A stretch of 64,000 nucleotides of DNA from Gallionella sp. (GTDB taxonomy: Bacteria > Pseudomonadota > Gammaproteobacteria > Burkholderiales > Gallionellaceae), in contig JAQTUP010000002.1 in assembly GCA_028707275.1 (NCBI GenBank), forward strand, positions 59,198 to 123,197, in the 5' to 3' direction. Under the pieces are notes generated by a model, which ran no database searches, was not told where the DNA came from, and saw only the letters and a list, made by a program, of their open reading frames with translations. Below are positions 2,148 through 27,725 of this stretch, one piece after another. Each line of letters begins with the position of its first letter. Positions within the stretch are counted from its first letter, which is position 1. Made by a program: the position numbers and the translations under genes.

Positions 2148-2157
2148 TCTCGCAATT

Positions 2158-3641: not shown

Positions 3642-5951
3642 TCAAATCAGCTGTTCCACGACGTCCAGCAATACCTTGGTTTCAAATTGACCCTTGACAA
3701 TATAGGCCTCGGCGCCAACTTCAATGCCGCGCAGCCGGTCTTCCTCGCGGGCGAGCGAGGTCACGATGATGACCGGCACCGCTTTGAGCCGCTCGCTCTG
3801 TTTAATCAGTGCGGTCAGTTCAAACCCGTTCATTTCCGGCATTTCAATATCCGTCACAACCAGATCAAATGTTTGTTCTTGCAGCATGAGCCATCCCTGA
3901 CGTCCGTTAACCGCCACACTGACCTTGTAGCCTGCATGCTCCAGGATACTTTTCTCCAGAGTACGGGTCGTAATGGAATCATCCACCACCAGCACAGACG
4001 GCACCGGAGCACTCTCGGCGCCGTCATCGCGCGGTGTGGCAAGACTTGCGCTCAACGCCGAGTCCACCAGATCCGACGGGTTGAGCACCATGATCACCTC
4101 ACCGCTGCCGGTCAGCGTGCCACCGTTGACATTACGCACTGACAGCAGGGGCGGGCGAAACGGCTTGACGACGATTTCACGCTCACCGATCACTTCATCG
4201 ACCAGAAAAGCCACACTATCCCAGCCTTTGGCCACCACGACCACAGGCATGGATTTTTTATGGCTGACTTCAGATTCGGCCAGGCTCAGGATCGCGGCCA
4301 GATCGCGCAACGGAATACTGTGCCCGCGATGCAAGATGGCATGACTGGCTTCGATTTTGATAATCTGGCAAGACTCGATCTCCATCACCTTGTCCACGGC
4401 TGATACCGGAATGGCAAACACCACCCCGCCTGCGCGTACCAGCACGCCATGCTCGGTGGCCAGCGTGATAGGCAGTCTGAGAATAAAGCGCGTACCATGC
4501 CCCTCTTCGGTTTCCAGCTGCACAGAGCCTTTGAGCTTGCGCAGATTTGCAACGACCACGTCCAGCCCCACGCCGCGTCCGGACATGCTGGTGATGATGT
4601 CACGGCTGGAAAAACCGGGACGAAAGATCAGGTTCATGATTTCCTCGCGCCCCATGGAGGCGAGCTCTGCATCGACGACCAGCTTCTTTTTGCGTGCGCA
4701 GTCCGCAATCTTTTCAGCCGAGATGCCAGCGCCATCGTCCTCTACGGTCAATACGACCTGACTGCCTTCGCTGAGAACCGAAATATGCAGACGACCCTCG
4801 GCGGGTTTACCATCCTCCAGCCTTTGTTGCGGCAATTCAATGCCGTGATCGAGCGCATTGCGCAGCAGGTGAATCAACGGGTCGCGGATACCTTCGAGCA
4901 CCATGCGATCAATTTCAATCTCGTCACCGCTGATTTCAAAATTGATTTTCTTACCCAGCTCACGCGCGATGTCCCGCACCTGGCGCGACAGCGGGCGCAG
5001 TAAACTCGCCACGGGAACCTGCCGCATCATGCGTACATTCTGCTGCAAGGATTCCACCAGCAATCCCAGACGACTGCAACTCGAACGCATTTCCCGGTGT
5101 GTCCGGGCACTGGAAGAATCAAGCTCCGCAATCGCATCTGCACTGCGCTTTTGCGCGGCAGCATCAGGGGGCGACGCCCTGTGGGGCACGACCAGCGCCT
5201 GTACACTGTTGCGCAACTGCTGCAAGGAAGCTAAATGATCGTCCATTTCAATTTTTGTGACCTGCAGCGCTTCCATCATCGCGGCCAGATTTTCGAGCTT
5301 CTCCCGGCTGATCCTCACCACCTCCGCTGACGGCCTGGCACGGGCTGACTCCGAAGTATTAACTGATTCGGCGTCTTCATCAGCGCCCGTCGGCGCGATG
5401 CGTTCGACGGGAGGTACGGCGGGCGCCATCGAAGAAGAGGCGGTTTTCTGCGTCGCATGAACGGGTAACGCATTAATGACAGCTGAATCAGCCGGTCCGG
5501 CGCCCTCCTCTGCCACTGACGTCACGGGCATCGCGGACGGCTGTTCGACGAGTGAGGCGACCTTTTCCAGTCGCAGGATCAGCCCCTCCTTGTCGAAGGA
5601 TCGCCCGGCATCAAAGGCTGCCATCGCCTGACGAATCGCGTCCATGGCTTCGAGCACAATATCGGTCACCTCCCCGTCCGGATTGCGCGACTCCCGTTTT
5701 AACACGGCAAAAATACTCTCCAGATGGTGTGCGATGTCGGATACATCATTCACTTCGACCCCGCGCGCAGCACCCTTGATATTATGCGCGGCACGAAATA
5801 CGCCTTCGAGCACCTGACGCTGCTCGTCGCCCGCCGCCCCCTTCTCCAACACCAGCAAACCATCGGTAATCACCTGGAGTTGCTCCTCCAGTTCGATGGC
5901 AAAGGTGTCCATCAGCATGCGCATCAATTCCTGATCAAATCCTAATGGCAT
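3642..5951 (-). CDS. cheA: CheA-CheY hybrid histidine kinase (Hpt, dimerisation, HATPase, CheW-like, C-terminal REC; WspE-like)
   Basis: The Hpt motif (HNIKGAARGVEV), the HATPase_c G-boxes (GRGVGLDVV), a CheW-like domain and a C-terminal receiver (VLVVDDSITTR...DIEMPEMNG) are all present. Confidence 0.9.
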   Translation of the reverse strand: MPLGFDQELMRMLMDTFAIELEEQLQVITDGLLVLEKGAAGDEQRQVLEGVFRAAHNIKGAARGVEVNDVSDIAHHLESIFAVLKRESRNPDGEVTDIVLEAMDAIRQAMAAFDAGRSFDKEGLILRLEKVASLVEQPSAMPVTSVAEEGAGPADSAVINALPVHATQKTASSSMAPAVPPVERIAPTGADEDAESVNTSESARARPSAEVVRISREKLENLAAMMEALQVTKIEMDDHLASLQQLRNSVQALVVPHRASPPDAAAQKRSADAIAELDSSSARTHREMRSSCSRLGLLVESLQQNVRMMRQVPVASLLRPLSRQVRDIARELGKKINFEISGDEIEIDRMVLEGIRDPLIHLLRNALDHGIELPQQRLEDGKPAEGRLHISVLSEGSQVVLTVEDDGAGISAEKIADCARKKKLVVDAELASMGREEIMNLIFRPGFSSRDIITSMSGRGVGLDVVVANLRKLKGSVQLETEEGHGTRFILRLPITLATEHGVLVRAGGVVFAIPVSAVDKVMEIESCQIIKIEASHAILHRGHSIPLRDLAAILSLAESEVSHKKSMPVVVVAKGWDSVAFLVDEVIGEREIVVKPFRPPLLSVRNVNGGTLTGSGEVIMVLNPSDLVDSALSASLATPRDDGAESAPVPSVLVVDDSITTRTLEKSILEHAGYKVSVAVNGRQGWLMLQEQTFDLVVTDIEMPEMNGFELTALIKQSERLKAVPVIIVTSLAREEDRLRGIEVGAEAYIVKGQFETKVLLDVVEQLI

Positions 5952-5982: not shown

Positions 5983-7518
5983 CTACAGTTTGTAAGTGCT
6001 GACGCTGTCGCGCAGCCGCTCGGCCACACGGCGCAGGTCTGCCGACGACTGCTTGCTTTGTTGCGCGGTGGTGACAAATTGCGCCGTCACTTTATTGATT
6101 TCTTTCATCGCCAGGGTCACCTGTTCGATGCCGATAAATTTTTGCCGCACTACAGCCGAAATTTGCTGGCTTGCGATGGCCGTTTCACGCACGACTTCAC
6201 CCAACTTGCGCACCACCTCCCCGCTTTTTTGCACCGACAGCATCCCGGCATCCACCCCTTTGCTGCCCTCTTCGGTGGCCATCACTGCGCGATCCGTTGC
6301 ATGCCGTATATCCTGGAGTATCTTTTGCACCTGAGCGGTCGATTGCTGCGATTGCTCCGCCAGCTCACGCACTTCGGCCGCGACGACGGCAAATCCCTTA
6401 CCTGCTTCGCCGGCTTTGGCAGCCTCAATGGAGGCATTGAGCGCCAGCATCTTGGATTGCTGGGCAAGGTTGGTCACGACAGCCGTAATTTCACCGATTT
6501 GCTGTGTCTGCTCGCTGAGCGCCAGTATGGTTTGCGCGATACCTTCGACGCGCTCGCGGATCGCTATCATACCCAAAATAGCCTGTTCTACCGCAACACT
6601 GCCTTGTTCGCTTTCGCGTCTGGCGCGTTCGGCCGACTCCCCTAACACCTGCATTTTCTCCATGGTCTGAGCCGACATGGCCTTGATTTCATCAAGCGAA
6701 GAAGTGGTTTCGTTGACCGCTGCCGCCTGTTCGGAAGCACCGGCCGACTGGCCGTTGATCGACTGCTGCAATTGCTCCAGCGTGCTGTAAATGGTATTGA
6801 TCGCCTCTGTCGTATCCGAGGCCACATGCGCCAGACTTTCTGTCATGCCATTGAGATTACTGCCCAGCTTTGCCAGATCGTCGCTGCCCACCACATCAAG
6901 CCTATGGCTCAAATCGCCCTCGGCCACGCTTGCAATGAAAGTCTGATAGGTCGCCAGTCTGGCCTCAATCTCATCTTTTGACATGCTGACCCCGTTCAGG
7001 TCAGTCATCAAACCATGTATATAGGTATCCATGGACAACTGGGAATCGATGGAGATGATCTTATGCAAGGCTTGCAAAGCCGCCTCCCGCGCACGGGCAT
7101 TCCACCGGTACTGGCGCTGGATCAACTTGACGATCTGGCAACTGTACACACTGTAACTGCCCAAATACCAGCGCGGAGTAAGACCAATTTTGTTGTGGAT
7201 CACACCGATTTTCAACCGCCGTTCAAAATAGGCGTCGCCATAATCTCCATCGAACATTTCCAGCAGATAGCGTTTCTGGGTCGTCTTGAGCCTGTCAATG
7301 TTTGAACCGGCCTCCCCGATGACATTCATCAGTTCGGTATATCGCTCGATATTGGCGTAAAAAGCATCGACAATGACGTCCGAATGCTGCTGGATAAAGG
7401 GACGCAAGGCTTTTAACGCTTGTATGTCCTGATCGCCAAAATCGACAAACTTCTTGCGCGAGGCCTGTTCGTTCGCATCAATACCCATCAACTGGGTCAG
7501 GGACTGGCTAAATTTCAT
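5983..7518 (-). CDS. Soluble globin-coupled methyl-accepting chemotaxis protein (HemAT-like heme-based sensor)
   Basis: It has no TM segments. The N-terminus is a sensor-globin fold (FYANIERYTEL..., LTPRWYLGSY). The C-terminus carries the highly conserved MCP signalling motif (LALNASIEAAKAGEAGKGFAVVAAEVRELAEQS). Confidence 0.85.
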   Translation of the reverse strand: MKFSQSLTQLMGIDANEQASRKKFVDFGDQDIQALKALRPFIQQHSDVIVDAFYANIERYTELMNVIGEAGSNIDRLKTTQKRYLLEMFDGDYGDAYFERRLKIGVIHNKIGLTPRWYLGSYSVYSCQIVKLIQRQYRWNARAREAALQALHKIISIDSQLSMDTYIHGLMTDLNGVSMSKDEIEARLATYQTFIASVAEGDLSHRLDVVGSDDLAKLGSNLNGMTESLAHVASDTTEAINTIYSTLEQLQQSINGQSAGASEQAAAVNETTSSLDEIKAMSAQTMEKMQVLGESAERARRESEQGSVAVEQAILGMIAIRERVEGIAQTILALSEQTQQIGEITAVVTNLAQQSKMLALNASIEAAKAGEAGKGFAVVAAEVRELAEQSQQSTAQVQKILQDIRHATDRAVMATEEGSKGVDAGMLSVQKSGEVVRKLGEVVRETAIASQQISAVVRQKFIGIEQVTLAMKEINKVTAQFVTTAQQSKQSSADLRRVAERLRDSVSTYKL

Positions 7519-7546: not shown

Positions 7547-8206
7547 TCAAAGAACCTGACGCTGCACGCGCAACGCCGGATCATCCATCAATGCTGCCAG
7601 ATTTAACAGCGTGACGCAGGCGTTGTGAATACCGAGTACATATTCCATATTCGTCACCCCGTTCGACATGAGAGGCGCGGACACATCAGCCTCATGATAT
7701 TTTTCGTTACCATCCACAGCATCCACCAGCAGGCCTGCGCGCATCTGGCCGTGCTTGACCACGATAATGCGCGCATCAACCCCCGACGGAACCGCTGGCA
7801 TACGAAAAAATTGTTTCAGATCCAGTATCGTCAGCAATTCGCCACGATGATTGATCACCCCGGCCACAAATGCAGGCGTGCACGGCACACGGGCAAGATG
7901 CCCCACATAGAGTAACTCTTCCAAATAAGGATAGGGGATACCATAGCGTTCCGCCCCCAGGCGAAAACGCAGGTACTGGCCCCAGGCTTCGTGCTGTGGC
8001 CCGCTCACGGGCCTGGCAATCAACTCGGCACGCGCGGCCAGCATCTTCTGAGAGGCAGCATCCTGCGGCATCAGTGCCGCTGCAAATTGAACAGGAGCCA
8101 AAACAGAAGGGCCGGGCAGCGGCATATCCCCCGCAGGCGGCGGTTCTGAATCCGGCCTGATATCCCTGGCGCCATGCGGCGGATGTTTTTTTCTGATTTT
8201 CGCCAT
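7547..8206 (-). CDS. cheW: CheW-like coupling protein with a Pro-rich N-terminal extension
   Basis: The CheW domain is in the C-terminal 150 aa (GVINHRGELLTILDL...LLVDAV). The N-terminal ~60 aa are low-complexity and Pro-rich. Confidence 0.8.
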   Translation of the reverse strand: MAKIRKKHPPHGARDIRPDSEPPPAGDMPLPGPSVLAPVQFAAALMPQDAASQKMLAARAELIARPVSGPQHEAWGQYLRFRLGAERYGIPYPYLEELLYVGHLARVPCTPAFVAGVINHRGELLTILDLKQFFRMPAVPSGVDARIIVVKHGQMRAGLLVDAVDGNEKYHEADVSAPLMSNGVTNMEYVLGIHNACVTLLNLAALMDDPALRVQRQVL

Positions 8207-8230: not shown

Positions 8231-9739
8231 TTAACGTGAAGCTCCCCGCCTGCCACTGCGGGCACTGCGGGCACTGCGGGCACTGCCGAGCATGCTGATT
8301 TCATTTTGCAAAACCTGTGCGAAACGGCTATAAGTCATTCCGCCCGCGTTGTGCAGCTTGCGTTCCGGTTCTCCTGATTGTGCAAGCTTCAGCGCCGTCC
8401 CCAGGCTTTTGATGCCCTCTGTTAAATTGCCACTTCGCACTTTTAACATGCCGATTTCATAGTGCGCTTCGAGAAATGAGCGATCCAGATACAACGCGCG
8501 GCGCAGAGCATCCTCTGCCTCCTCGATATGATCGAGCTCTGAGAGAATCAGACTCTGAATCAGGTAAGCATGTTTGTTGCCAGGATCCAGTTGCAAGCTT
8601 CGAACACAAGCTCTTTGAGCCTCGTCCAGACGCCCGAGATTCGCCAGCGCGCGGGCGCTCATTTGCCATAGCTTGCTGTTTTCATCCCCTCTCTTGCAGG
8701 CGGCTTCGACCTGCACCAGCACCGCCGACCAGTCCGCGCGATCGAATAACTCGATCAGCTCATCCATCTGTTCATCGGATTGAACAGCGGCGCTATTTTC
8801 CACGGCCATCGTCGGCGCCGGATCCGGCTCTGAATCTGACGACAGCGCCGCATCCGGACACACTCTGGCCTGGTTCGCGGACGGCGCCCCCGGTGCAGAA
8901 GCTTTGTAAAAATAACCCGCAAAGTTCGTTTGCCGCAATTCAAGTGGCGTATGCATGTATTCGACTGGGTCTGACGCGCCCAGCATCAGCACGCCACCTT
9001 CGACAAGACACGATGCATATTGCGCCATACTGCGCCTGACGGCCTCGCGATCCAGATAGATAAACACGTTGCGGCACAGGATCAGATCCATCGCATTGGT
9101 CTGCCCCAGTATCGACGGATAAACATCTGCACTCAGATTAAGGTAAGCAAAATGCGCCATCTGCCTGATCTGGCTGTGAATTTCATATTTATTCCCCGCC
9201 GGAGTAAACCAGCGCTCGCGCACCGCCTGCGGTGTCGCGCGAAAGGACCAGTCCGAATAGCGCCCGCACATCGCGCGAGCCACGACTTCACTGTTGATGT
9301 CGGTTCCCAGCAAATGGATGCGCCACTGCACAATATCCGGAATAAGCTCCAGCAACAACAAGGCCATCGTGTAGAGCTCCTGCCCCTCCGAGCATCCGGC
9401 ACTCCAGACGCGCAATGACAAATTCCCACTTGCACGCTTTGCGTCTATCATCCGGGGCAGCAACGTCTCTCGCAGCAATTCGATCTGGCAGCTGTCGCGA
9501 AAAAAATAACTCTCGCCTACTGTCACCCCTGAAATCAAATATTGAAGAGGCTCGCTCCAATCAGCAGCGCGTTGAAGCTCATCCAGATAGTGCGCCGCGT
9601 TGCGATAAAAAAAATGTGCACATCCCTTGCGCAGCGTATCGCGCAGATTGGACAACTGATGATCTTGCAGGACGATACCGGTACGCCGCGCAATCAGCCG
9701 ACAAAATGCATCTTCAAGTTCGGCGGCAAGACTATCCAT
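8231..9739 (-). CDS. cheR: CheR-type MCP methyltransferase with a C-terminal TPR domain (WspC-like)
   Basis: CheR SAM-binding motifs (ESYFFRD, RVWSAGCSEGQE, LCRNVFIYL) are followed by TPR repeats. The C-terminal tail contains a 9-mer tandem repeat encoding ARSARSARS. Confidence 0.9.
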   Translation of the reverse strand: MDSLAAELEDAFCRLIARRTGIVLQDHQLSNLRDTLRKGCAHFFYRNAAHYLDELQRAADWSEPLQYLISGVTVGESYFFRDSCQIELLRETLLPRMIDAKRASGNLSLRVWSAGCSEGQELYTMALLLLELIPDIVQWRIHLLGTDINSEVVARAMCGRYSDWSFRATPQAVRERWFTPAGNKYEIHSQIRQMAHFAYLNLSADVYPSILGQTNAMDLILCRNVFIYLDREAVRRSMAQYASCLVEGGVLMLGASDPVEYMHTPLELRQTNFAGYFYKASAPGAPSANQARVCPDAALSSDSEPDPAPTMAVENSAAVQSDEQMDELIELFDRADWSAVLVQVEAACKRGDENSKLWQMSARALANLGRLDEAQRACVRSLQLDPGNKHAYLIQSLILSELDHIEEAEDALRRALYLDRSFLEAHYEIGMLKVRSGNLTEGIKSLGTALKLAQSGEPERKLHNAGGMTYSRFAQVLQNEISMLGSARSARSARSGRRGASR

Positions 9740-9763: not shown

Positions 9764-10231
9764 TCATTGCTCGGCGCCCTGATACAGCCCGGAATTGATC
9801 AGCCAGGCCGCATCGAGCAGGAATGCCAGCCCCGTATCCGTATGCGCACAGGCACGAAACGCCGCATCATGGCGTCCCAGTTCGCCGGTAAGCTGCAAGT
9901 CCGACTCTTGCAGCATCTGAATTCCTTTAATGTCCTGAACGATGACCCCCATGCGTTTTAGCCCGTGCATGCACACCACAATAGGCGTATCCAGCGTATA
10001 AGGTAATGACGGCAGACCCAGACGAATCGCAAGATCAATCACGGGCACACTGCTGCCCGCATAATTCATGATACCCGCCACATGCGGTGCACTGCCCGGC
10101 ATGACATGCAGCGCCACAAGCGAAATAGTGCGTTCCACATACCCCAGCTCAATGCAGGCCAGCATCCCCCCCATCTTCAACACCAACACCTGGCAGTTTC
10201 CCGACAAAACCTCGTCAATATCGGCTCTCAT
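9764..10231 (-). CDS. cheW: CheW coupling protein
   Basis: A 155-aa single-domain CheW (VAGIMNYAGSSVPVIDL...IVQDI). Confidence 0.85.
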   Translation of the reverse strand: MRADIDEVLSGNCQVLVLKMGGMLACIELGYVERTISLVALHVMPGSAPHVAGIMNYAGSSVPVIDLAIRLGLPSLPYTLDTPIVVCMHGLKRMGVIVQDIKGIQMLQESDLQLTGELGRHDAAFRACAHTDTGLAFLLDAAWLINSGLYQGAEQ

Positions 10232-10234
10232 GGC

Positions 10235-11311
10235 TTAGTCCTTCGCATACCATTCCATGACCCCGCAGCCCTGAATTTCTTCCAGAACATCGACACTGCG
10301 ATCCTGACTGACTCTCTCTGGCCGCAGCAAGGCTTCGGGACGCTCGCGTACAATAGACAGAAATATTGCCATCAAAGTTGGGTCCCAAAATCCGCTGGCC
10401 GTTTCCTGCTCCATGATCTGTATGACTTTATCTCGCGGGAACGCGGGTTTATAGGGGCGTTCACTGGACAGAGCGTCAAAAATATCGACAATCTGGAACA
10501 CGCGGGCGATCAGGGGGATTTCCTCGCCTGCCAGTCCTGCCGGATAGCCCGTGCCATTCCATTTTTCATGGTGGCATCGCACGATATCGGCCGTGCGTTG
10601 CATGGTACGCAACGGGCTGCACAGCGCCGCGCCTATCACCGTATGCTGCTTCATGATCTGCCATTCCGCAGCATCCAGCGCCCCCTTCTTGAGCAGGATA
10701 TTATCCGGAATACCCAGTTTCCCGATGTCGTGCAGAACCCCGCCGCGCCGCAAGGCATCGAGTTCTTCGGCACCCATCCCCAGCGCCCGGCCAAAGACTA
10801 CCCCGGTGTGAGCCAGGCGATCGCAATGGTCTCCGGTATTGGCATCGCGCGCCTCGACCATGCGCGCCAGCGCGAACAACACCGATTTGGCGTCGTCCAG
10901 CTGGTCGGTCAAACGCTTGCGCTCGATGGCGGCCCTGACTCTTGCTGTGAGCTCGATCGAATTGAATGGCTTGGTGACATAATCGTCCGCCCCCACATCC
11001 ATCCCCCTGACCACATCGTCGGGCGACCCCAAAGACGTCACCATGATGATGGGCAACAATTTCAGGCCGAGTTCCTCGCGGATACGGCGACAGGTTTCAA
11101 AGCCGTCAAGACCTGGCATGATGACATCGAGCAACACCAGATCAAAGGCTTCGTGGCGCAACATTTCCAACGCCTGCATCCCGTCGCAGGCCTCGACGAG
11201 ATGGTATTCCGGAGGTCTCAACACATAACCCAATAGCTTGCGGTTAGTCGCCATATCATCGACGGTGAGCACTTTAGAGCCAGTCAAGGCTGATTCCGAC
11301 ACCAAACTCAT
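10235..11311 (-). CDS. Response regulator with an HD-GYP domain (c-di-GMP phosphodiesterase)
   Basis: It has an N-terminal REC (VLTVDDMATNR...LDVIMPGLDG) and a C-terminal HD-GYP domain (HDIGK, HHEKWNGTGYP). Only 3 nt separate it from the downstream cheW. Confidence 0.85.
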   Translation of the reverse strand: MSLVSESALTGSKVLTVDDMATNRKLLGYVLRPPEYHLVEACDGMQALEMLRHEAFDLVLLDVIMPGLDGFETCRRIREELGLKLLPIIMVTSLGSPDDVVRGMDVGADDYVTKPFNSIELTARVRAAIERKRLTDQLDDAKSVLFALARMVEARDANTGDHCDRLAHTGVVFGRALGMGAEELDALRRGGVLHDIGKLGIPDNILLKKGALDAAEWQIMKQHTVIGAALCSPLRTMQRTADIVRCHHEKWNGTGYPAGLAGEEIPLIARVFQIVDIFDALSSERPYKPAFPRDKVIQIMEQETASGFWDPTLMAIFLSIVRERPEALLRPERVSQDRSVDVLEEIQGCGVMEWYAKD

Positions 11312-11331
11312 ACGACCCCTATCTTCCTTAA

Positions 11332-11452
11332 CCGATGTGACTGCGTCACATCAGTTATGTATTCAAATCAACTTCGCCGGGGGCAGCCCGGCTGCTGGCG
11401 ACTTTCTTTTGTGTCGCCAAAAGAAAGTCGCTAAAGAAAAGGCGCCCCCGGT
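11332..11452. repeat. Truncated copy (5' ~120 bp) of a ~380-bp MITE-like repeat family
   Basis: It shares the terminal palindrome (gatgtgactgcgtcacatcag), the core caaatcaacttcgccgggggcagcc and the hairpin cgactttcttttg-N6-caaaagaaagtcg with the copies at 40900, 52846 and 58093. Confidence 0.6.
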
Positions 11453-11544
11453 AAAAACCTTTTTTCATCCGCCCCGATCTCCGGCCGATGAACCAGTATG
11501 CGCCGACAGGCGGCCAAAACATCTGCCGCGCAGCTGAGCTCACT

Positions 11545-13209
11545 TTATGCAGGATAGCTGGCATCGGCGAGCACCACCTGATTGCGCCCTGCATGTTTGG
11601 CTTTATACAGCGCCATATCTGCCGCATCCGTCAATCTGGATGCATTGTCAAAATTTTTCATCTCGGCCAGGCCACAGCTGAAGCTGGCTGAAAATTCCTG
11701 GTCTTTTGCCAGGTGGCGCAGTTGTGAAAAGTCATGACGAATGGCGTCCATGACTTTCATCGCGGCAGCCCCATCGGCATCGATAAGAACCACGGCAAAT
11801 TCCTCCCCCCCGTAACGCCCGACCAAATCGTTCTCGCGCAGGCGCTGTTTTAGCAGCCTGGACAGGCTCTTTATCACGCGATCGCCCACCGGATGTCCGT
11901 AGCTGTCGTTGACCTTCTTGAAGTGATCGATATCCAGCATCGCGAAGGTGATGCTCCTGGCATGCCTTTTGGCCTGGGCGATTTGACCGACCAGCTGATC
12001 CTTGATGGCGATATGGTTGAGCAACCCGGTCAGACCGTCGCGCACCATGAAAGAACGCAGCAACAAGGAGCGTTTGATCCGGCTGTTAATGGACGAGACG
12101 AGCTGATGAGCCTCGATCGACTTGGTCAGGAAGTCGTCCGCCCCCAGAACGAGCGCTGCAAGCTGCTTGTCCAGATTGGTTTCGGAGGACAAAAATACGA
12201 TGGGGATGCTGACGAAGGCGTCAATTTGCCGGATGACTTTGGCCAACTCAAGCCCGCTGCATCCGGGCATATAAATATCCACCAGAATCAGGTCAGGAGA
12301 AAAATCCTGCAATGGTCGCATCACGTCAAGCGGGTCGTTCACCACCTTGACGGACATACCGGCATGTTCGAGCACGCGGGCGTGATAATTCGACAGATTC
12401 ACATCATCATCCACGATCAAAACTCTGGGAGCCGGTGCGACTGAAGCTGAGGTCAGTTCGTCGAGCTTGTCGACCAGAACACCCAGATTCACGGGTTTCA
12501 TCAGGTAGGCCACGCCGCCTGCCCTTACCGCTTCGAGCCTTACTTCCAGCTCGCTGTGCGACGAAAGGAAAATGACCTGCAGCGGCGTCTGCCGGTTGCG
12601 TTGCAATTCCGGCATGACATGCACCCCACCCAGAGGATCCTCGGGAAAGTTGATGTCCATCAACACCACGCCCCTGGAATCCTGTCGTATGGCACGGCGA
12701 AAATCCTCCAGCGTGTAAAACAGCTTCACGTCATATTCGAAATACTTCAGCTGCGTTTTGAGTTCCCAGGCGAGCTCGCGATCATGCTCCACGACGAAAA
12801 TGCGGCGAGTGTTGCGCGCTTTCGCACGAACAGCCTTGACCGGGATTAAATTAACCTGCGCAGAACCGGGCTTGTCAGGCTGATTTGCCGCCAGGCTCAC
12901 CCCTGCGAGCAGAAGGCTCACCTTGTCGCGCTGCACCGCATTCAACTCCGTTTTTGCCTGTCCCAGAAAATAAAGATAGTTTTCCAGTTCGCGCGCCGAA
13001 TCGCTGAGCGCAGAAAAGCCAAACGTCTTGCCAGACCCCGTCAGGCCGTGCACCAGACGGTGCAAATTCAAAAACTCATCCTGATCCCAGCCTATAATTG
13101 GAAACTGGCGCCAGGACTGTTCTATCTGTTTGATTTTTTCAGGCAACTGCCCGGCATATGCCTGGCTTAACAGCTTTAGCATGAGCTGAAGTTCATTGAC
13201 CTCAGACAT
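11545..13209 (-). CDS. Hpt-REC-REC-GGDEF diguanylate cyclase response regulator
   Basis: An N-terminal Hpt-like motif (LHRLVHGLTGSGKTFG) is followed by two receiver domains and a GGDEF domain (RYGGEEFAVVL). Confidence 0.8.
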   Translation of the reverse strand: MSEVNELQLMLKLLSQAYAGQLPEKIKQIEQSWRQFPIIGWDQDEFLNLHRLVHGLTGSGKTFGFSALSDSARELENYLYFLGQAKTELNAVQRDKVSLLLAGVSLAANQPDKPGSAQVNLIPVKAVRAKARNTRRIFVVEHDRELAWELKTQLKYFEYDVKLFYTLEDFRRAIRQDSRGVVLMDINFPEDPLGGVHVMPELQRNRQTPLQVIFLSSHSELEVRLEAVRAGGVAYLMKPVNLGVLVDKLDELTSASVAPAPRVLIVDDDVNLSNYHARVLEHAGMSVKVVNDPLDVMRPLQDFSPDLILVDIYMPGCSGLELAKVIRQIDAFVSIPIVFLSSETNLDKQLAALVLGADDFLTKSIEAHQLVSSINSRIKRSLLLRSFMVRDGLTGLLNHIAIKDQLVGQIAQAKRHARSITFAMLDIDHFKKVNDSYGHPVGDRVIKSLSRLLKQRLRENDLVGRYGGEEFAVVLIDADGAAAMKVMDAIRHDFSQLRHLAKDQEFSASFSCGLAEMKNFDNASRLTDAADMALYKAKHAGRNQVVLADASYPA

Positions 13210-13621
13210 GACGTCTTTCCCAGATGGTCTGAACCTGGCCGGACAAAGTCATCGGGTCGAATGGTTTCGGGATAACGTCCAGCGCACCCAGCGCCTTATA
13301 GCCTGCGACCTCGCCCGGCTGCACCTTGGCTGTCATGAAGATCACAGGGGTCGTCGCAAATTCCGGGATTTCGCGCAGGTGAGCCAGGGTCGTCGGGCCA
13401 TCCATGCCGGGCATCATCACATCCATCAATATGAGCTGGGGTTTGAATTCGGGCGCGCGTATCAGGGCATCCTTCCCGGAACTGCATATTTCCAGCGTGT
13501 ATCCACCGACCATTTCCAGCGCCAATCTTGCCACCACCTGGATATCCGGCTCATCCTCCACATACAGCACCCGCACCAATTTTTCCGTCATACCCCTCCC
13601 TTTTCGAAATTCCCGATGCAC
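13202..13621 (-). CDS. Single-domain response regulator (CheY-like receiver)
   Basis: A 139-aa REC domain (VLYVEDEPDIQ...MDVMMPGMDG...FMTAK). Its stop overlaps the start of the downstream GGDEF gene. Confidence 0.8.
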   Translation of the reverse strand: MHREFRKGRGMTEKLVRVLYVEDEPDIQVVARLALEMVGGYTLEICSSGKDALIRAPEFKPQLILMDVMMPGMDGPTTLAHLREIPEFATTPVIFMTAKVQPGEVAGYKALGALDVIPKPFDPMTLSGQVQTIWERRHV

Positions 13622-13692: not shown

Positions 13693-15288
13693 TCATGCTT
13701 CGTCGGCACCGGCAGGGATAGGCTGTCGCCAGAGCGGAAACTCGACATAAAAAACAGTGAGCACATCGGGCTTGGAATCAAAGCCTATCTTCCCGCCCAT
13801 TTGTTCGACGATGGCGCGGGAGATGACCAGCCCAAGCCCCGTTCCGCCCTTCTTGCGCGTATCTGATGAATCAGCCTGAGAAAATTTTTGAAAAATCTGA
13901 CCGCGAAATTGCCCCGGTATGCCGCAGCCTTGATCAGATACAGAGATACGCACACGAGAGTCATCGGCGTTCACCGCCACGAGCACTTTCGCGCCTGCCG
14001 GGGAAAACTTGGCCGCATTGGAGAGCAGATTGGCCATCACCTGCAAAAACCGGTTGATATCCAAAAACAGCGTTACGTCAGATAAATCGCCTGCCAGCTC
14101 GTACGTGACCCCGAACTGTTGTGCATAGGCCATGTTGCCCTCCAGCGCCTGTTTCAACAAGGGAATCAAGCGGATGGTCTGCGGATGAAAATCCATCTTC
14201 CCCGCCTCTATCTTTTCCATATCGAGAATATCATTCACCAGCAAGATCAGGCGCTCGCAATTCTTGTAAGCGACATCGACCAGCGATTTTGCCTGAGGCG
14301 GCAACTCACCGGCGACCCCTCCTGCCATCAGGCCTAAGGATCCTCGTATCGAGGTCAAAGGAGTGCGCAATTCATGACTGACCGTCGAGATAAACTCGGC
14401 TTTCATACGCTCTATTTTGACGCGCCCGGTAATATCGCGAACGATCCTGGATGTGCCTGTAATCTTTCCATCTTCATCCAGAATAGGCGAAATACTGACC
14501 GAGACATCGACCAACTGCCCGCCTTTACTCAGGCGAACCGTTTCAAAATGTTCGATGCGTTCGCCGCGAAGAATGCGCGCAAGAATCCCTGATTCCTCAT
14601 TTTCACGACCTGGCGGGATGAGCATAGCCATCCGCTGGCCGACCGCTTCCTGTTTCGTGTATCCGAACAGAGCGACAGCGGCAGGATTCCAGGTGGTAAT
14701 GACGCCATCCAGCGTCTTGCTGATGATCGCATCCTCGGACGATGCGATGATTGAAACATAACGCGCCTGGAACAGGGCGTGTTCCGAGGCGCGCGCAAGC
14801 TGCCGCCCCCATTCGAGCTCTTCGCTCACGCATTGCGCCAGATCACGCAGCATGTTCAATTGTTCGGCGCTCACCTCGCGCGGCTGGTAATCTATCACGC
14901 ACAGCGTTCCTGCCCGCTGTCCTGTGCGCAGCGTCAGCGGATACCCGGCATAGAAGCGTATATGAGGCACACCACTCACCAGCGGATTGTCGGCAAAACG
15001 CGGATCGAGGGCGGCGTCAGGAATGAGAAAAACCCGGTCATCGAGTATGGCGTGACCACAAAAAGAGATATTGCGAGGGGTTTCAGACACTTCCAGCCCC
15101 TGACTGGATTTAAACCATTGCCGCTGACTGTCGATCAGCGAGACCAGCGCGACGGGTACGCCAAACAGATGCTGAGCCAGCCGGGTCAGGCGATCGAAAC
15201 GCTCTTCAGGTGGCGTATCGAGTATAGCCAGCGCGCGCAGCGCTGCGATACGATCTGCTTCATCAAATGGGTCGGGTGGCTCTAACAA
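13693..15288 (-). CDS. Cytoplasmic GAF-PAS sensor histidine kinase
   Basis: It has GAF and PAS domains, a HisKA H-box (STVSHELRTPLTSI) and HATPase_c (GTGLGLVISRAIVEQMGG). No TM segments. Confidence 0.85.
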   Translation of the reverse strand: MLEPPDPFDEADRIAALRALAILDTPPEERFDRLTRLAQHLFGVPVALVSLIDSQRQWFKSSQGLEVSETPRNISFCGHAILDDRVFLIPDAALDPRFADNPLVSGVPHIRFYAGYPLTLRTGQRAGTLCVIDYQPREVSAEQLNMLRDLAQCVSEELEWGRQLARASEHALFQARYVSIIASSEDAIISKTLDGVITTWNPAAVALFGYTKQEAVGQRMAMLIPPGRENEESGILARILRGERIEHFETVRLSKGGQLVDVSVSISPILDEDGKITGTSRIVRDITGRVKIERMKAEFISTVSHELRTPLTSIRGSLGLMAGGVAGELPPQAKSLVDVAYKNCERLILLVNDILDMEKIEAGKMDFHPQTIRLIPLLKQALEGNMAYAQQFGVTYELAGDLSDVTLFLDINRFLQVMANLLSNAAKFSPAGAKVLVAVNADDSRVRISVSDQGCGIPGQFRGQIFQKFSQADSSDTRKKGGTGLGLVISRAIVEQMGGKIGFDSKPDVLTVFYVEFPLWRQPIPAGADEA

Positions 15289-15346: not shown

Positions 15347-17278
15347 TCAATATTTCACCTCGTCCTTCCACATCTTTGCTTCAAAACGCACCACGCGGTT
15401 TCTCCCTGCCTCCTTGGCGTGATACATGGCAACATCGGCATATTTTACAGCCTGCCAGAAAGTATCACTGTCCAGCGGAAACTCTGAAATTCCAATGGAG
15501 ATAGTTTTTTGCAGCACTTCGCCGGGCAGCTGCACCTTCATTTTTTCAACGTCGGCGCGTATTTTTTCGGCCACTTTGTCGGTGGCCTCCCCTGTCGAGT
15601 CCTGCATAATCACGAGAAACTCCTCTCCACCATAACGTATCACAAGGTCAGCCGCGCGCACCGATGCCTGTATGGTTCTGGCCAGCGCCTTGAGAACCAG
15701 ATCCCCCGCGTCATGACCGTAGGTATCATTCACCATCTTGAAGTAATCAAGGTCGAGCATCAGCACCGAGAGCTGGCTCTTGCGACGCTGATTGGAAGCT
15801 ACCAGAGTTTCGGCGAATTCTTCCAGAAAACGGCGGTTGTGCAGACCTGTCATGGCATCGGTCAGATTGGAGGCGCGCAACGTATCCATCAGCCGCTTGG
15901 CCTCAATGACGGGTGCGGCTTCGCGCAAATAAACATTCAGATAGGGTAGAAATTCATGGATGCGTTCACCATCGTCCCGATGTGAGACCAGTTGCAGCAC
16001 GCTACCCACCATGCCCGACTGAATAATCGGAATACACACATGCACACGATCAGCCCCATCACGGTCAGATTGAAAGGCGTAACAGATTCCGGGCACGTTG
16101 ATCGAATCGATGATGTGCCCGGTGCGCCGGGCGCGACAACTTTCAGCATGAAGCAGAATTTGTGGGTCGCACCAGCGACAGGGGGCATCGATCTCGCCAT
16201 CTACCACCAGGGGCGCCATTCGACTGGTGCCCGTCACCATTTCATAGATCGAAAAATCATGGATAGCGAAGCGTTCCTGCAAAACCGATGACAGTCGCCG
16301 GTATATTTCCGGCTTGGTTTCATCCTCTTCGATCGCCTGCTTGAAATGCGCGGCCTCAATCAGTCCGGCGACGCGACTGATCGTGGAATTGAGCAAATTC
16401 TCATGCTCGTGTGTCGGCGTTTGCTGCAAAAGTTGTGCGACATCCTGGCTGATGGTTGTCAGTCCATTTTGAATGAATTTCAGCAGACTGTTCAAGTCCG
16501 CCGCAACCTGCCCTATTTCATCATCGGTACGTCGCTCGATATTGGCATGAAAATCCCCCTGAATGGCGCGTTCAACGGTCTCCTGCACATCGCGCGCGGT
16601 GACGATCACAGGTTTGACCAGCCGCCGGAAAAACCACAGCATCACCAGCATAAACGAAACGATTGCCAGCACCATGACAGACGAAGTCATGTAGGCACTG
16701 CGCATCATCTCGCTCATGGACATCGTAATCGTAATCACGCCCAGCACTGTCCCTTCCGCTACATTGTGGCATTGCAGGCAGTTGATATGTCCGGCACGAG
16801 TGGCAATATAGGGCAGCGTGCCGCGAAAGGCCAGTCCGTCGTTTTCGTCGATCAGTTTATAGTAAGCCTGTCCGTCCTGCATGACCTGCGCCTCAATTTT
16901 GTCCCTGATTTGAACTCGTTTCGAGTCCTTGCCAAACTGTGCGGCAACGCTGTCAGAGCGGATCACCCTGACTGTACGCATTCCTTCCACAGAGGCCAGA
17001 TGACCCAGAAAATCATCCCGATTTTCTGCAGAATTGTGCAGCATGGATTCACTAAGACTGATGCCGACAATATCGGCAATTGAACGGATATGCTCACGCT
17101 CGGTTGTAATGGTGAATTGGCGAAATGACAGAAAACTCACCACCACGACGACCACGATCATGGACAGGGTTATTACAATGGAAAAGGTCGTAACTTTGGT
17201 ATCGAGTTTCATTCTGGCAACCCTAAAAAGTCTTTTTGAATTAACTCTGACGTATTGTGACATAACAGATGGCTGCAT
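15347..17278 (-). CDS. Membrane sensor diguanylate cyclase with a periplasmic CxxCH (heme c) motif, HAMP, a Cys-rich cytoplasmic domain and GGDEF
   Basis: Two TM helices bracket a ~140-aa periplasmic domain containing CLQCH. The cytoplasmic part has HAMP and a GGDEF domain (RYGGEEFLVIM). The start codon is uncertain, and an internal Met at 17212 is possible. Confidence 0.8.
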   Translation of the reverse strand: MQPSVMSQYVRVNSKRLFRVARMKLDTKVTTFSIVITLSMIVVVVVVSFLSFRQFTITTEREHIRSIADIVGISLSESMLHNSAENRDDFLGHLASVEGMRTVRVIRSDSVAAQFGKDSKRVQIRDKIEAQVMQDGQAYYKLIDENDGLAFRGTLPYIATRAGHINCLQCHNVAEGTVLGVITITMSMSEMMRSAYMTSSVMVLAIVSFMLVMLWFFRRLVKPVIVTARDVQETVERAIQGDFHANIERRTDDEIGQVAADLNSLLKFIQNGLTTISQDVAQLLQQTPTHEHENLLNSTISRVAGLIEAAHFKQAIEEDETKPEIYRRLSSVLQERFAIHDFSIYEMVTGTSRMAPLVVDGEIDAPCRWCDPQILLHAESCRARRTGHIIDSINVPGICYAFQSDRDGADRVHVCIPIIQSGMVGSVLQLVSHRDDGERIHEFLPYLNVYLREAAPVIEAKRLMDTLRASNLTDAMTGLHNRRFLEEFAETLVASNQRRKSQLSVLMLDLDYFKMVNDTYGHDAGDLVLKALARTIQASVRAADLVIRYGGEEFLVIMQDSTGEATDKVAEKIRADVEKMKVQLPGEVLQKTISIGISEFPLDSDTFWQAVKYADVAMYHAKEAGRNRVVRFEAKMWKDEVKY

Positions 17279-17375: not shown

Positions 17376-18375
17376 TAAGCGGCCAATGCTCCCACATTGA
17401 ATTCGTTGGCGAAAGCTAAGAGCAGTCCACCAATTTTTAAGTGGACACTTTCATGGAATCATCTCATCCCATTCGCCGTCGTCGGCAACATGCGCCAAAA
17501 TTAACATCCGCTGGCCAGTCACTCAGGCTCACGCTTTTGGACAATGCCTGGCTGTGTGGCTCAAATGATTTGGCCGGAACAGGTATTTCTGTACATGGCG
17601 CCGGTGGACATGCGCTGGGGCATGGATCGCTTGTCGTTGCTGATTCAGCAGAGGATGGCCGTTCTCCCTGCGACGGCACGGCCCACGGCTTTACCAACCG
17701 CAACAACTCGCGCTTAAAACTGCTGATCTGGGATGGCACAGGTCTATGGTTGTGTCATCGCCGTCTGCATAAAGTGCGCTTTCGCTGGCCGATTCCCGGC
17801 GAAACTCTGTTCCGCATGAGCGCTGAACAATGGCGCTGGCTGATTGCCGGGGTGGACTGGCAGCGGCTGTGCGCGACGCCTATCTGCGCCGTATGCGCTA
17901 CGGAGTCAAGAGCGAAACGCTGAGTCCGGAGCAACGACAGCTGTTCGAAGACGATGTCATTCAGAATATCGCCGCCGTGGAAGCCGAGCTGCCCGCGACA
18001 CCGGCCAAGCCGAGAGCCCGCAGGCCGCCAGACTTTGCCCGAGTATCTGGAACGGGTTGAAGTGCGCCACGAACCGGATTGCTCAACCTGTCAGTCCGAT
18101 CTGGTCAAGATCGGCGAAGATGTCAGCGAACAGCTGGATATCGAACCGGCCAGATTCTTTGTGATTCGCCACATCCGCCCGCAATATGCCTGCCGCCAGT
18201 ACGAAACCGTGACGGCCGCGCCGGTGGCGCCCGCCACTCAAAGCCTGTTTGCCACCTCAAAACTCAACGGCATCGAGCCCGCCGCCTGGCTCAAAGATAC
18301 ACTGGAAAAACTCCCCGTTTGGACCATGCGGCGCATCGACGAGTCGCTGCCTCTCAAACCCGCCGCATAAACTGG
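17376..18375 (+). mobile_element. Degraded IS66-family element (left IR, TnpB fragment with frameshifts, internally deleted TnpC)
   Basis: A GTAAGCG-type terminal repeat lies at about 17376. There is a TnpB-like peptide (LLIWDGTGLWLCHRRLHKVRFRWP...AEQWRWLIAGVDWQRL). TnpC pieces (zinc-finger CxxC...RHIRPQYACRQYE and the C-terminal LFATSKLNGIEPAAWLKDTL) are fused by a deletion. Confidence 0.65.
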
Positions 18376-18414
18376 CACATCTGAACAGGTGGTATGGCCG
18401 GACACATACATCGC

Positions 18415-18510
18415 CACTTCCTTTCTAAATCCTTCATTCCAAAACGACATGACTTTGTCGGGCTACGCCGACTGCAAGCAAAGGTATTTTGTCCATGCCG
18501 ACAATCATTC
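18415..18510. repeat. Copy 1 of a ~95-nt intergenic repeat (second copy at 27625-27725)
   Basis: About 80% identity to 27625-27725 (ccttcattccaaa...gtcgggctacgcc.acgacaagg.aaaggtattttg...gcaatcat), including a conserved palindrome gtcgggctacgccgac. Confidence 0.4.
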
Positions 18511-19026
18511 TGTCGGAGATATTGGCGAGACTTGCCCCAGCTTCTTCTGCCAGAACATCGCCTTGCCCATCTTGGGATCAAGTTCGTATCCGGCAAAGCC
18601 GCTGGCCTTGTATGCCGCTTGCGCCAGAGTATTGCCCTCCAGCACTTCCAGCGTGAGCTTGCAGCAGCCAAGGCGTAGCGCGATTTCTTCTGCCTTGGCA
18701 AGCAAGCGCTTGGAAATGCCGCGCCCCCGGTATCGGCTCGCCACAATGATGTCGTGAATGTTCAGCAGCGGTTTGCACGCGAAGGTTGAAAATCCTTCAA
18801 AGCAAACCGCCATGCCAGCGGGCGATCCATCCACGAAGGCGAGTACGAGATGCACGCCTTGCCGTTTGCGCAATTCGGTAACGAGATTGTCTTTCACGAA
18901 TTCCGGCAATTCCGCCCCGCCGCCCATGTCGTCTTTGGCATACTCATTCAGCAGATAAACGATGGCCGATGCGTGGGTTGGCAACGACAGGTCAGCGCTG
19001 ATTATTTCTTCTGCGCCAATCAGCAT
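18505..19026 (-). CDS. GNAT family N-acetyltransferase
   Basis: A 173-aa protein with acetyl-CoA binding motif A (IVASRYRGRGISKRLL). Confidence 0.75.
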   Translation of the reverse strand: MLIGAEEIISADLSLPTHASAIVYLLNEYAKDDMGGGAELPEFVKDNLVTELRKRQGVHLVLAFVDGSPAGMAVCFEGFSTFACKPLLNIHDIIVASRYRGRGISKRLLAKAEEIALRLGCCKLTLEVLEGNTLAQAAYKASGFAGYELDPKMGKAMFWQKKLGQVSPISPTE

Positions 19027-19865: not shown

Positions 19866-20000
19866 GGTGTTTCATTTACCCGGCCAGATGAACTCCACCC
19901 GAATGCCGCTCGGCTCAAGACACATCATGTGTTTCGCAGGTCCCGCCCCAGTAGTTCCATCCCCTTTTCAAACGCATTGCCGCTCCTGAAGGCGCGCTCC
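19866..20000 (-). pseudogene. Frameshifted 3' remnant of a VOC/glyoxalase-family gene (paralog of 25433-25834)
   Basis: The reverse strand translates to ...ELLGRDL / KHMMCLEPSGIRVEFIWPGK*, which matches the C-terminus of the intact VOC gene (KHMMCYEPSGIRVEFTWPGN*). Roughly 75% nucleotide identity over about 70 nt. Confidence 0.5.
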
Positions 20001-21019: not shown

Positions 21020-21260
21020 TTAGCCACCACATCCCCTCCCCCTTGCGGGGGGAGGGCTAGGGAGGTGAAGTCGCACTTGGACGCGCGAATAATATCATCC
21101 CCTCCCCCTTGCAGGGGGAGGGCCAGGGAGGGGGTAGAAACGCTGGCGTTCCACGACGCCACCCCCATCCGAGCGTGTGTTGCTGGGGCGCATGCCCCGT
21201 ACAACCACGGTCTACCCCTTGCGGGTGCAACCTTCCCCCTGCAAGGGGGAAGGAACTGGT
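21020..21260. repeat. Three GC-rich palindromic hairpin repeats (cccctcccccttgc-ggggggaggg type) in the divergent promoter region
   Basis: The copies lie at about 21030, 21097 and 21228. Each is a perfect or near-perfect stem-loop. Confidence 0.5.
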
Positions 21261-27624: not shown

Positions 27625-27725
27625 CCTCCCTCTTACTTTTTCAATCCTTCATTCCAAACTGGCATTACTTTATCGGGCTACGCCAACGACAAGGAAAGGT
27701 ATTTTGACCAGGTCTGCAATCATCC
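27625..27725. repeat. Copy 2 of the ~95-nt intergenic repeat (see 18415-18510)
   Basis: Alignment to 18415-18510 at about 80% identity. Confidence 0.4.

Follow-up and report, generated by a model that had tools for sequence, protein, structure and literature searches.

The subject of this study is a row of signaling genes in a 64,000-nucleotide (nt) stretch of Gallionella sp. contig JAQTUP010000002.1, called the window throughout, which has a G+C content of approximately 55%. The row is an unbroken series of 12 genes on the minus strand, running from position 17278 down to 2158. Its first four genes encode a HAMP-GGDEF protein, a GAF-PAS kinase, a single-domain receiver of 129 amino acids (aa) designated REC129, and a cyclase with the domain order Hpt-REC-REC-GGDEF (Hpt, histidine phosphotransfer; REC, receiver). 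After a gap of 233 nt follow a REC-HD-GYP response regulator, CheW, CheR-TPR, a second CheW, a Protoglobin-HAMP methyl-accepting chemotaxis protein (MCP), CheA-REC, CheB, and a 130-aa Hpt-like protein. The row is flanked downstream by a convergent MscS-like gene and mutS and upstream by IS66 remnants (17441–18370). A preliminary description of positions 10235–13209 had presented the HD-GYP regulator and the cyclase as opposing outputs of cyclic di-GMP (c-di-GMP) signaling placed back to back. Open reading frames (ORFs), Pfam matches, and translations bore out all of its coordinates and features, on the minus strand, with domain scores well beyond chance level. The comparisons reported below indicated that the cyclase module and the HD-GYP operon are two independent, separately conserved modules.

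The cyclase gene (11545–13209; minus strand, like all genes of the row) encodes 554 aa, in which Pfam detected an Hpt domain, two Response_reg stretches, and a GGDEF domain, in the order previously described. The Hpt domain (residues 4–107; 12889–13200) matched PF01627 with 38.0 bits, above the Pfam cutoff of 24.6. Conservation of individual residues was determined from an alignment of the 120 best homologues, which are 57–71% identical to the cyclase, and from a second alignment of 60 sequences. His54, at the phospho-acceptor position, was kept in all 120 homologues; G58, F63, and G64 were conserved; and Glu76 was invariant in the 60-sequence alignment. The Hpt motif quoted in the preliminary description, LHRLVHGLTGSGKTFG, corresponds to residues 49–64. 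The Lys of the HxxKG-like motif is replaced by Thr, Ile, or Ser in the cyclase family. In a search of solved structures, VH54GLTGSGKTFGF...LE76N aligned with AHSIKGGAGTFGF...MEN of the CheA P1 domain with weak E-values (0.006–0.06), and His54 and Glu76 coincided with the phospho-His and its partner Glu. An AlphaFold2 model made with 60 homologues placed helices at residues 4–34, 43–62, 66–85, and 91–107, with block-mean pLDDT (predicted local distance difference test) values of 83–93 over residues 11–110; beyond a disordered linker (114–133) it contained two receiver folds and a GGDEF fold, with a predicted template-modeling score (pTM) of 0.39. The profile match, the conserved His, and the modeled helix bundle together identify the N-terminal domain as a genuine Hpt domain.

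The first receiver, REC1 (residues 136–253; 12451–12804), has a receiver fold in the AlphaFold2 model, and a helical linker connects the second, REC2 (residues 262–386; 12052–12426), to the GGDEF domain. In REC1, D185 was found in 119 and K238 in 120 of the 120 homologues, with S or T at position 216; in REC2, D267, D268, D311, S341, and K363 were each kept in 118–120. Both receivers thus retain the acidic pocket, the phospho-Asp (D185, D311), the Ser/Thr, and the Lys (K238, K363). The GGDEF catalytic domain (11569–12042) scored 143.8 bits in Pfam and matched the fold of other GGDEF domains with a template-modeling (TM) score of 0.9. Its A-site, RYGGEEF, was invariant in the 60-sequence alignment, as were R458 and D461 of the I-site R458-E-N-D461, which lies five residues before the A-site with PleD-like spacing. 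As judged from these motifs, the GGDEF domain has intact A- and I-sites and is not degenerate.

The cyclase had been called unusual, a view that the database searches did not uphold. The best 120 matches were in the same length class, and 119 of them carried the same three Pfam families, including PF01627. Among the matches listed, full-length relatives with 35–39% identity occurred in Rheinheimera, Pseudomonas sp. LD120, and Stutzerimonas azotifigens, and also in Nitrospirillum, Spirochaetia, and a metagenome-assembled genome (MAG) of Actinomycetota. The Hpt domain scored above the Pfam cutoff in seven of eight distant relatives scanned; the eighth, a Pseudomonas fragariae protein, had no Hpt match. 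Searching 1.84 billion cluster representatives with the Hpt region alone gave 1188 matches at E ≤ 0.001, which included, besides proteins of about 550 aa, the arrangements Hpt-REC-REC-GGDEF-EAL (about 825 aa), Hpt-REC, and REC-Hpt-REC-REC-GGDEF. Judging from these matches, Hpt-REC-REC-GGDEF is a large conserved family and not a rarity. No named NCBIfam family scored above its cutoff for the cyclase, REC-HD-GYP, REC129, or the small Hpt-like protein, and no paper naming the Hpt-REC-REC-GGDEF architecture by this notation or a related one was found in the full-text literature searched. Separately, four long proteins, P0241 (4858 aa), P0243 (1533 aa), P0264 (1886 aa), and P0318 (1515 aa), contain 5–16 tandem stretches matching the Hpt subtype of the cyclase.

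Directly upstream of the cyclase lie the single-receiver gene and the GAF-PAS kinase gene, both of which the preliminary description had placed correctly. The receiver ORF spans 13202–13621 and probably starts at the ATG at 13591, which gives the same length of 129 aa as in the orthologues (REC129, 13202–13591; Pfam REC, 79.6 bits). Its stop codon overlaps the start of the cyclase gene by 8 nt (ATGTCTGA; pattern ATGnCTGA). We compared the gene context of the cyclase in the window with that at six other Gallionellaceae/Nitrotoga loci (L081, L083, L084, L089, L091, and L092). The window and five of these six loci, all but L092, carry a 129-aa receiver gene with the 8-nt overlap directly before the cyclase gene. 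The REC129 orthologues of L081, L083, L084, and L089 are 75–80% identical with the same overlap, and L091 has a 129-aa receiver gene in the same overlapping position. A REC129 gene overlapping the cyclase gene was also present in Stutzerimonas azotifigens (L012) and Pseudomonas sp. LD120 (L050).

The sensor histidine kinase (13693–15288; 531 aa) has the Pfam domains GAF-PAS-HisKA-HATPase and is non-hybrid, having no C-terminal receiver. Its PAS-HisKA-HATPase core shares 50–56% identity with the kinases that precede the cyclase module's receiver gene in L081, L084, and L089. A HisKA-type kinase precedes REC129 wherever the contig reaches far enough, with sensory domains that vary (GAF, CHASE, MASE3). 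Across genomes the identities were 75–80% for REC129, compared with 57–62% for the cyclase and 50–56% for the kinase core, making REC129 the most conserved protein of the kinase-REC129-cyclase module. At the switch position REC129 has Val, whereas REC1, REC2, and the receiver of the HD-GYP protein keep an aromatic residue; loss of the aromatic switch residue has been described for intermediary receivers (PMC9981736). Finally, a natural fusion protein, P0275, has the order REC-Hpt-REC-REC-GGDEF and is 41% identical to the cyclase from Hpt to GGDEF.

On the other side of the gap, the REC-HD-GYP gene (10235–11311) encodes an RpfG-type protein of 358 aa (Pfam REC, 99.9 bits; HD_5, 107.9 bits; HD, 62.4 bits). 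The start at ATG 11311 was backed by an end-to-end alignment with a 78%-identical orthologue, and 3 nt separate the stop at 10235 from the start of cheW at 10231, the spacing originally given. The protein contains the HD-GYP motifs LHDIGK and HHEKWNGTGYP. The metal ligands agreed with those of PmGH (4mcw) only in part: seven of the eight are kept (H162, H194, D195, H223, H247, H248, and D276), and the position of Glu185, the third-metal ligand of PmGH, is Asn158 here and Thr, Asp, Asn, or Ser in the family. The ligands present, together with G253-x-G-Y-P and R285xxK288, were all invariant in 118 relatives. Like the GGDEF domain, the HD-GYP domain is thus not degenerate, and neither of the observations named as refuting the preliminary description, an Hpt-like region without a profile match or degenerate active sites, was made. 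Because of the Asn at the Glu185 position, a binuclear metal centre is predicted, and the protein is thereby assigned to the binuclear rather than the trinuclear, PmGH-type, HD-GYP subgroup. Members of the binuclear subgroup usually stop at pGpG (bioRxiv 10.1101/2021.11.05.467447). The NCBIfam model for NosR-type HD-GYP regulators gave 166 bits against a cutoff of 400.

The best sequence match of the HD-GYP domain among solved structures was V-cGAP3 (5z7c), a phosphodiesterase for 3'3'-cyclic GMP-AMP (3'3'-cGAMP), so that specificity of REC-HD-GYP for c-di-GMP is an assumption. This match is one reason to consider that the protein might hydrolyse another cyclic dinucleotide, such as 3'3'-cGAMP, or act mainly through protein contacts, in which case the two outputs would not be opposed; the RpfG family does include catalytically weak or inactive members. 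The invariance in the family of the binuclear metal ligands, GYP, and RxxK argues otherwise, and no cGAMP synthase was seen in the examined parts of the window. We consider such a function quite improbable and treat the protein below as a putative c-di-GMP phosphodiesterase.

REC-HD-GYP is followed by a set of chemosensory genes: CheW (9764–10231; 155 aa; Pfam CheW, 85 bits); a WspC-like CheR methyltransferase with C-terminal TPR (8231–9739; CheR, 150 bits, plus TPR families); a second CheW (7547–8206; 219 aa; 96 bits); a soluble, HemAT-like Protoglobin-HAMP-MCPsignal chemoreceptor (5983–7518; Protoglobin, 149.7 bits; MCPsignal, 123.6 bits); a WspE-like hybrid CheA-REC with Hpt/P1, HATPase, CheW-like, and receiver domains by Pfam and translation (3642–5951); a REC-CheB methylesterase (2543–3619; CheB, 198 bits; above the cutoff of an NCBIfam CheB subfamily); and, as the last gene, the 130-aa Hpt-like protein (2158–2550), whose Pfam Hpt score of 23.4 bits is below the cutoff of 24.6. 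By its list of parts the operon appears Wsp-like, that is, of the "alternative cellular function" (ACF) type; NCBIfam gave no Wsp-specific match above cutoff.

The set REC-HD-GYP, CheW, CheR-TPR, CheW, protoglobin MCP, CheA-REC, and CheB recurs without change of relative order in L086 (a Gallionella-like genome, 78% identical), L087 (Sulfuricella), and L090 (a metagenome contig, 80% identical), and a shuffled version is present in a Rhodocyclaceae MAG (L088). The globin-coupled MCP is 86% identical to its orthologue in L086. Two relatives have a ParA/MipZ-like ATPase gene between CheR-TPR and the second CheW (L087, 13228–13875; L090, 13075–13725) that is lacking in the window and may position the chemosensory array; the L087 operon also contains a second MCP. 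The small Hpt-like protein comes next after CheB in L086 and L090, and in L088 it precedes a receiver within a single fusion protein; the L087 contig ends at this point. Its motif H42-QEFD..GGARAV was invariant in the three sequences aligned (window, L086, and L088). Beyond this protein lie a receiver or receiver fusion, a CheC/CheX-type phosphatase, and PAS-GGDEF in L088 (18200–20516) and L090 (19837–21077), and REC-PAS-GGDEF-EAL in L086 (20134–21077). A GGDEF-containing protein therefore follows the che operon in all three relatives with a visible 3' end, whereas the operon of the window ends at 2158 and lacks all of these additional genes. The HD-GYP gene had been described as lying next to the che core; it does adjoin cheW, but it is more than a neighbour, being the conserved first gene of the operon and, from this arrangement, its presumed output.

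We also considered whether the chemosensory kinase feeds the cyclase, either from the receiver of CheA-REC to the Hpt domain or from the catalytic domain of CheA directly to the P1-like Hpt, which would place both outputs on one CheA. Among natural sequences of solved structure, CheA P1 domains are indeed the closest to the Hpt domain, and their phospho-His aligns with His54. The window, L083, and L089 each have a che cluster adjacent to the cyclase or not far from it, and the CheA of the window, being a hybrid kinase, carries a receiver. On the other side, the E-values of the P1 matches are weak; what is conserved next to the cyclase is a HisKA-type kinase and REC129 rather than CheA; and the che operon is conserved without an Hpt-REC-REC-GGDEF cyclase. 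A specific relationship of the cyclase Hpt to the P1 domain of the neighbouring CheA or to the small Hpt-like protein was rejected, because pairwise BLASTP found no similarity to either. A CheA-driven cyclase is therefore very improbable.

The gap between the cyclase and REC-HD-GYP genes (11312–11544) contains, as previously noted, a truncated repeat resembling a miniature inverted-repeat transposable element (MITE), with one terminal inverted repeat and about 125 nt of an element of approximately 370 nt (11331 to about 11457; repeat families D1, D3, D5, I3, and I4). The fragment occupies −20 to −146 from the HD-GYP start codon. Longer copies are present in the window at 40912–41281, 52864–53203, and, inverted, 58090–58501; each is about 370–410 nt long, overlaps no ORF of 110 aa or more, and has 11-nt terminal inverted repeats (ACTGATGTKAC). 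The repeat was 83–94% identical to other copies over 70–103 nt, and a four-copy alignment showed the gap copy diverging after about 125 nt. The element, being short, non-coding, multicopy, and bounded by terminal inverted repeats, is MITE-like. With four copies in 64 kb it is probably abundant in the genome of the window; it was absent from the 89 loci compared.

The RNA of the coding strand of the gap had a folding energy of −108.5 kcal/mol (z = −4.9). Its predicted structure includes a perfect 14-bp hairpin inside a GC-rich stem and a 13-bp hairpin formed from the terminal repeat, neither followed by a U-tract. A promoter and terminator scan found no terminator-like site on the coding (minus) strand of the gap and no sigma-70-like promoter in it; the single terminator-like hairpin was on the non-coding strand and at chance level. 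A weak GG-N10-GC (sigma-54-like) match noticed by eye is indistinguishable from chance. An Rfam search of the whole window gave tRNAs only, with no match in the gap, and aligning the gap with the upstream regions of orthologous operons revealed no conserved promoter block. The HD-GYP operon may be read through from the cyclase genes, or it may have a promoter in the other 87 nt of the gap or inside the MITE fragment, and the repeat may or may not have rewired transcription as the preliminary description had suggested.

Comparison of gene contexts showed that the adjacency of the two modules is peculiar to the window, which was the only case of direct adjacency among seven cyclase contexts and among five HD-GYP contexts. 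The cyclase module is followed by radical-SAM/AMMECR1/Memo genes in L081 and L089, by a REC-YaiO-HEAT-glycosyltransferase set in L084, by an unrelated convergent che cluster in L083, and by unrelated genes in L091 and L092. Upstream of the HD-GYP operon lie a HAMP-PAS-GGDEF-EAL gene in L086, a hybrid kinase and another REC-HD-GYP in L087, and lipid/glycosyltransferase genes in L090. In GCA_038206935.1 both modules are on one contig about 8 kb apart, with their order reversed. Pairing of the HD-GYP che operon with some cyclase does recur, with changing partners. The specific pairing in the window, flanked by the MITE fragment and IS66 remnants, looks like a lineage-specific rearrangement. A designed, back-to-back opposition of c-di-GMP outputs was the weakest part of the preliminary description: the two are adjacent in the window, but not in the six other cyclase or the four other HD-GYP contexts.

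These results bear directly on the possibility, implied by the preliminary description, that both modules form one push-pull unit. Read-through over the terminator-less gap would then give a transcript of about 15 kb, redox input by way of the kinase relay and O2 input by way of the globin MCP would set c-di-GMP antagonistically, and the MITE hairpins would tune how stable, or how well translated, each half is relative to the other. Consistent with a single unit, all 12 genes are on one strand, no terminator-like site interrupts the coding strand of the gap, and the MITE fragment sits at −20 to −146, where a native HD-GYP promoter would be expected. The che operon of relatives is followed by PAS-GGDEF (L088 and L090) or REC-PAS-GGDEF-EAL (L086), and the cyclase module lies within about 8 kb of the che operon in GCA_038206935.1, so that the association of operon and cyclase recurs. 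The 233-nt gap is the widest spacing in the row. On the opposite side stand the single occurrence of direct adjacency in each set of contexts and the difference of the partner cyclase from genome to genome. Moreover, the unrelated upstream neighbours of HD-GYP among relatives suggest that the operon normally has its own promoter, and with about 45 GGDEF/EAL genes in 3 Mb in Gallionellaceae (PMC3770913) clustering of such genes is common. A single push-pull unit is, in our judgment, rather unlikely.

We favor, with a probability of roughly 60%, the interpretation that two separately conserved c-di-GMP modules stand head to tail, one a relay-fed cyclase and the other a che/HD-GYP system of opposite output. 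In the first module the GAF-PAS kinase would autophosphorylate and pass the phosphoryl group to free REC129; from the Asp of REC129 it would move to His54 of the cyclase Hpt and then to an Asp of a cyclase receiver, in a His-Asp-His-Asp relay. The most likely terminal acceptor is REC2, whose helical linker to the GGDEF domain is of the DgcR/WspR type; it is favored because the stretch from REC2 through GGDEF can be aligned with DgcR over its full length. Phosphorylation would promote the active GGDEF dimer, and the RxxD I-site would give product inhibition. Since the kinase of the window lacks a receiver of its own, a free receiver would be needed to reach the Hpt domain. This, together with the overlap and conservation of REC129, its missing switch aromatic, and the P0275 fusion, supports a relay from kinase to REC129 to Hpt to REC. 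The multi-step phosphorelay feeding a cyclase that had been proposed earlier is therefore still the best reading of the sequence data, and the coupled REC129 gene and the natural fusion strengthen it. In the second module the globin-coupled MCP would sense O2 or another gas, probably O2, and control CheA-REC through the two CheW proteins, while CheR-TPR and CheB would provide adaptation. CheA would phosphorylate REC-HD-GYP, presumably changing the activity of this predicted binuclear-type phosphodiesterase and hence c-di-GMP turnover. Given the receiver of the hybrid CheA, the che operon might in its turn form a His-Asp-His-Asp relay that ends on the HD-GYP regulator.

Several observations, including the V-cGAP3 match discussed above, weigh against this interpretation. 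The FATGUY motif of intermediary receivers is absent from REC129, which reads FMTAKV. In L092 a 66%-identical Hpt-REC-REC-GGDEF gene (1873–3537) stands alone, with no adjoining kinase or REC129 gene, and the three-gene module is accordingly not universal. In most relatives the kinase is a hybrid that contains a receiver, sometimes with an extra free receiver, so that REC129 could be a branch or phosphate sink and not an obligatory intermediate. Both cyclase receivers look phosphorylatable, so that either might be the terminal acceptor. Lastly, the repeated presence of a GGDEF protein beside the che operon in relatives means that the adjacency of the cyclase may not be functionally neutral.

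An alternative is an intramolecular relay. Here the kinase would phosphorylate REC1 (D185), the phosphoryl group would pass to His54 and on to D311 of REC2, and REC129 would act as a competing sink, as a connector, or as a second input. In favor of such a relay, no phospho-acceptor residue is lost from either receiver, in contrast to PleD with its degenerate second receiver; the cyclase of L092 occurs as an orphan, without REC129; and many relatives combine hybrid kinases with additional free receivers. The REC129 gene is, however, translationally coupled to the cyclase and encodes the most conserved protein of the module; the aromatic switch residue is missing from REC129 but present in REC1; and the natural fusion sets a receiver directly before the Hpt domain. 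We regard the intramolecular route as a serious rival, if on present evidence a somewhat unlikely one, and retain the relay through REC129 as the preferred order of transfer.

A more far-reaching combination of these ideas can be formulated. Hpt-REC-REC-GGDEF with its coupled REC129 might be a widespread class of cyclase carrying its own phosphorelay, distributed over Beta- and Gammaproteobacteria and Spirochaetia and including the GGDEF-EAL and REC-fused variants. A MITE- or IS-associated rearrangement might then have put the cyclase into one transcription unit with the O2-sensing che/HD-GYP operon, whose che half might itself be a relay, with the phosphoryl group passing from the CheA receiver to that of the HD-GYP regulator by way of the small Hpt-like protein. 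The locus would in that case be a hard-wired c-di-GMP push-pull controller of the motile versus the stalk or biofilm state at the oxic-anoxic interface. Taken as a whole, we find this combination doubtful.

The remaining features of the row and its surroundings are as follows. The first gene of the row (15347–17278) encodes a 643-aa membrane HAMP-GGDEF diguanylate cyclase (Pfam GGDEF, 162 bits). Its translation has intact RYGGEEF and RAAD sites and, in a predicted periplasmic segment, the motif CLQCH (CxxCH, heme-c type), which makes it a candidate redox-sensing cyclase. The IS66-family remnants directly upstream (17441–18370, plus strand) comprise a TnpB/Orf2-like ORF and fragments with zf-IS66 and C-terminal transposase domains; their position is consistent with local rearrangement. 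Elsewhere in the window, tRNA gene clusters are present at 41494–41901 and 31016–31162, with one MITE copy beside the first, and the first also contains two copies identical over 73 nt (41711–41783 and 41829–41901). Dispersed repeats occur at 18414–18512 and 27629–27727 (99 nt, 81% identical) and at 19872–19944 and 25433–25505 (73 nt, 81%), and a C/G-rich, palindromic unit of 36 nt is present twice in tandem at 21030–21131.

In the habitats of Gallionellaceae, O2 and Fe(II) form narrow gradients that oppose each other, and signaling accounts for about 10% of the genes of these bacteria (PMC3770913). For their choice between swimming and the stalk or biofilm state, the locus offers two testable circuits, and it provides an entry point to c-di-GMP control in microaerophilic iron oxidisers, with little to surprise a specialist. 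All of the domains and the logic are known, so neither pathway is a new principle. Both architectures, nevertheless, are without an experimental representative in the literature searched; that search, in which the main classification papers were outside the scope, likewise found no characterised chemosensory system with an HD-GYP output. The cyclase family moves the "His2" step of a relay from the kinase onto the response regulator, and the globin-receptor che pathway, with its apparent output of c-di-GMP degradation, would be the mirror image of Wsp.

Among known systems, PleD of Caulobacter most resembles the REC-REC-GGDEF body of the cyclase: it ranked first in the fold comparison, where about 450 columns were aligned, and has the same A-site and RxxD I-site. 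PleD lacks an Hpt domain, and the NCBIfam PleD model NF007135 scores the cyclase at only 205.5 bits against a cutoff of 474. The second receiver of PleD is a degenerate, non-phosphorylatable adaptor, whereas the Gallionella cyclase keeps all phospho-acceptor residues in both receivers. REC2, the helical linker, and the GGDEF domain align end to end with DgcR of Leptospira (6zxm, E = 6e−41), and the activation of DgcR/WspR-type REC-GGDEF proteins by receiver phosphorylation acting through the linker is the model adopted here for the cyclase; unlike these proteins, it has an additional N-terminal Hpt and REC1 (NCBIfam DgcR, 196 bits; cutoff, 500).

With respect to phosphotransfer, the CdgK-CdgS system of Anabaena PCC 7120 is a His-Asp-His-Asp relay that ends on a receiver activating a diguanylate cyclase (PMC9927289). 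There the intermediate receiver and Hpt domain are within a hybrid kinase; here the receiver is free and the Hpt domain is fused to the cyclase. Spo0F-Spo0B-Spo0A has the proposed order of kinase, free receiver, His-phosphotransfer module, and terminal response regulator, and REC129, like intermediary receivers, is without the aromatic switch residue. In the Gallionella system, unlike that of Spo0, the phosphotransfer module would be a monomeric Hpt-type helix bundle within the terminal regulator itself, whose output would be enzymatic. The difference from known relays thus lies in the fusion of Hpt to the cyclase and in the dedicated free receiver as a shuttle.

The che operon is best compared with Wsp, an ACF-class pathway that controls c-di-GMP (PMC8846402). 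Like the Pseudomonas Wsp system, it has an MCP, two CheW proteins, CheR-TPR, a hybrid CheA-REC, CheB, and a response regulator predicted to act on c-di-GMP. The output in Wsp is the REC-GGDEF protein WspR, which is encoded last, whereas here it is REC-HD-GYP, encoded first; the receptor is a soluble globin-coupled MCP instead of a membrane four-helix-bundle (4HB) receptor; and there is an extra small Hpt-like protein. REC-HD-GYP shares its domain architecture, binuclear-site ligands, GYP, and RxxK with the RpfG family, PmGH, and PA4781. It differs from PmGH in the Asn at the Glu185 position, with loss of the third-metal ligand, and from RpfG, which works with the hybrid kinase RpfC, in its association with CheA. 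The chemoreceptor resembles HemAT in having a protoglobin sensor domain and an MCP signaling domain, an architecture that implies a heme-based gas sensor. HemAT, however, feeds flagellar chemotaxis, whereas the operon of this receptor contains an HD-GYP response regulator. It is in the direction of its output and the type of its receptor that the che operon differs from the known systems.

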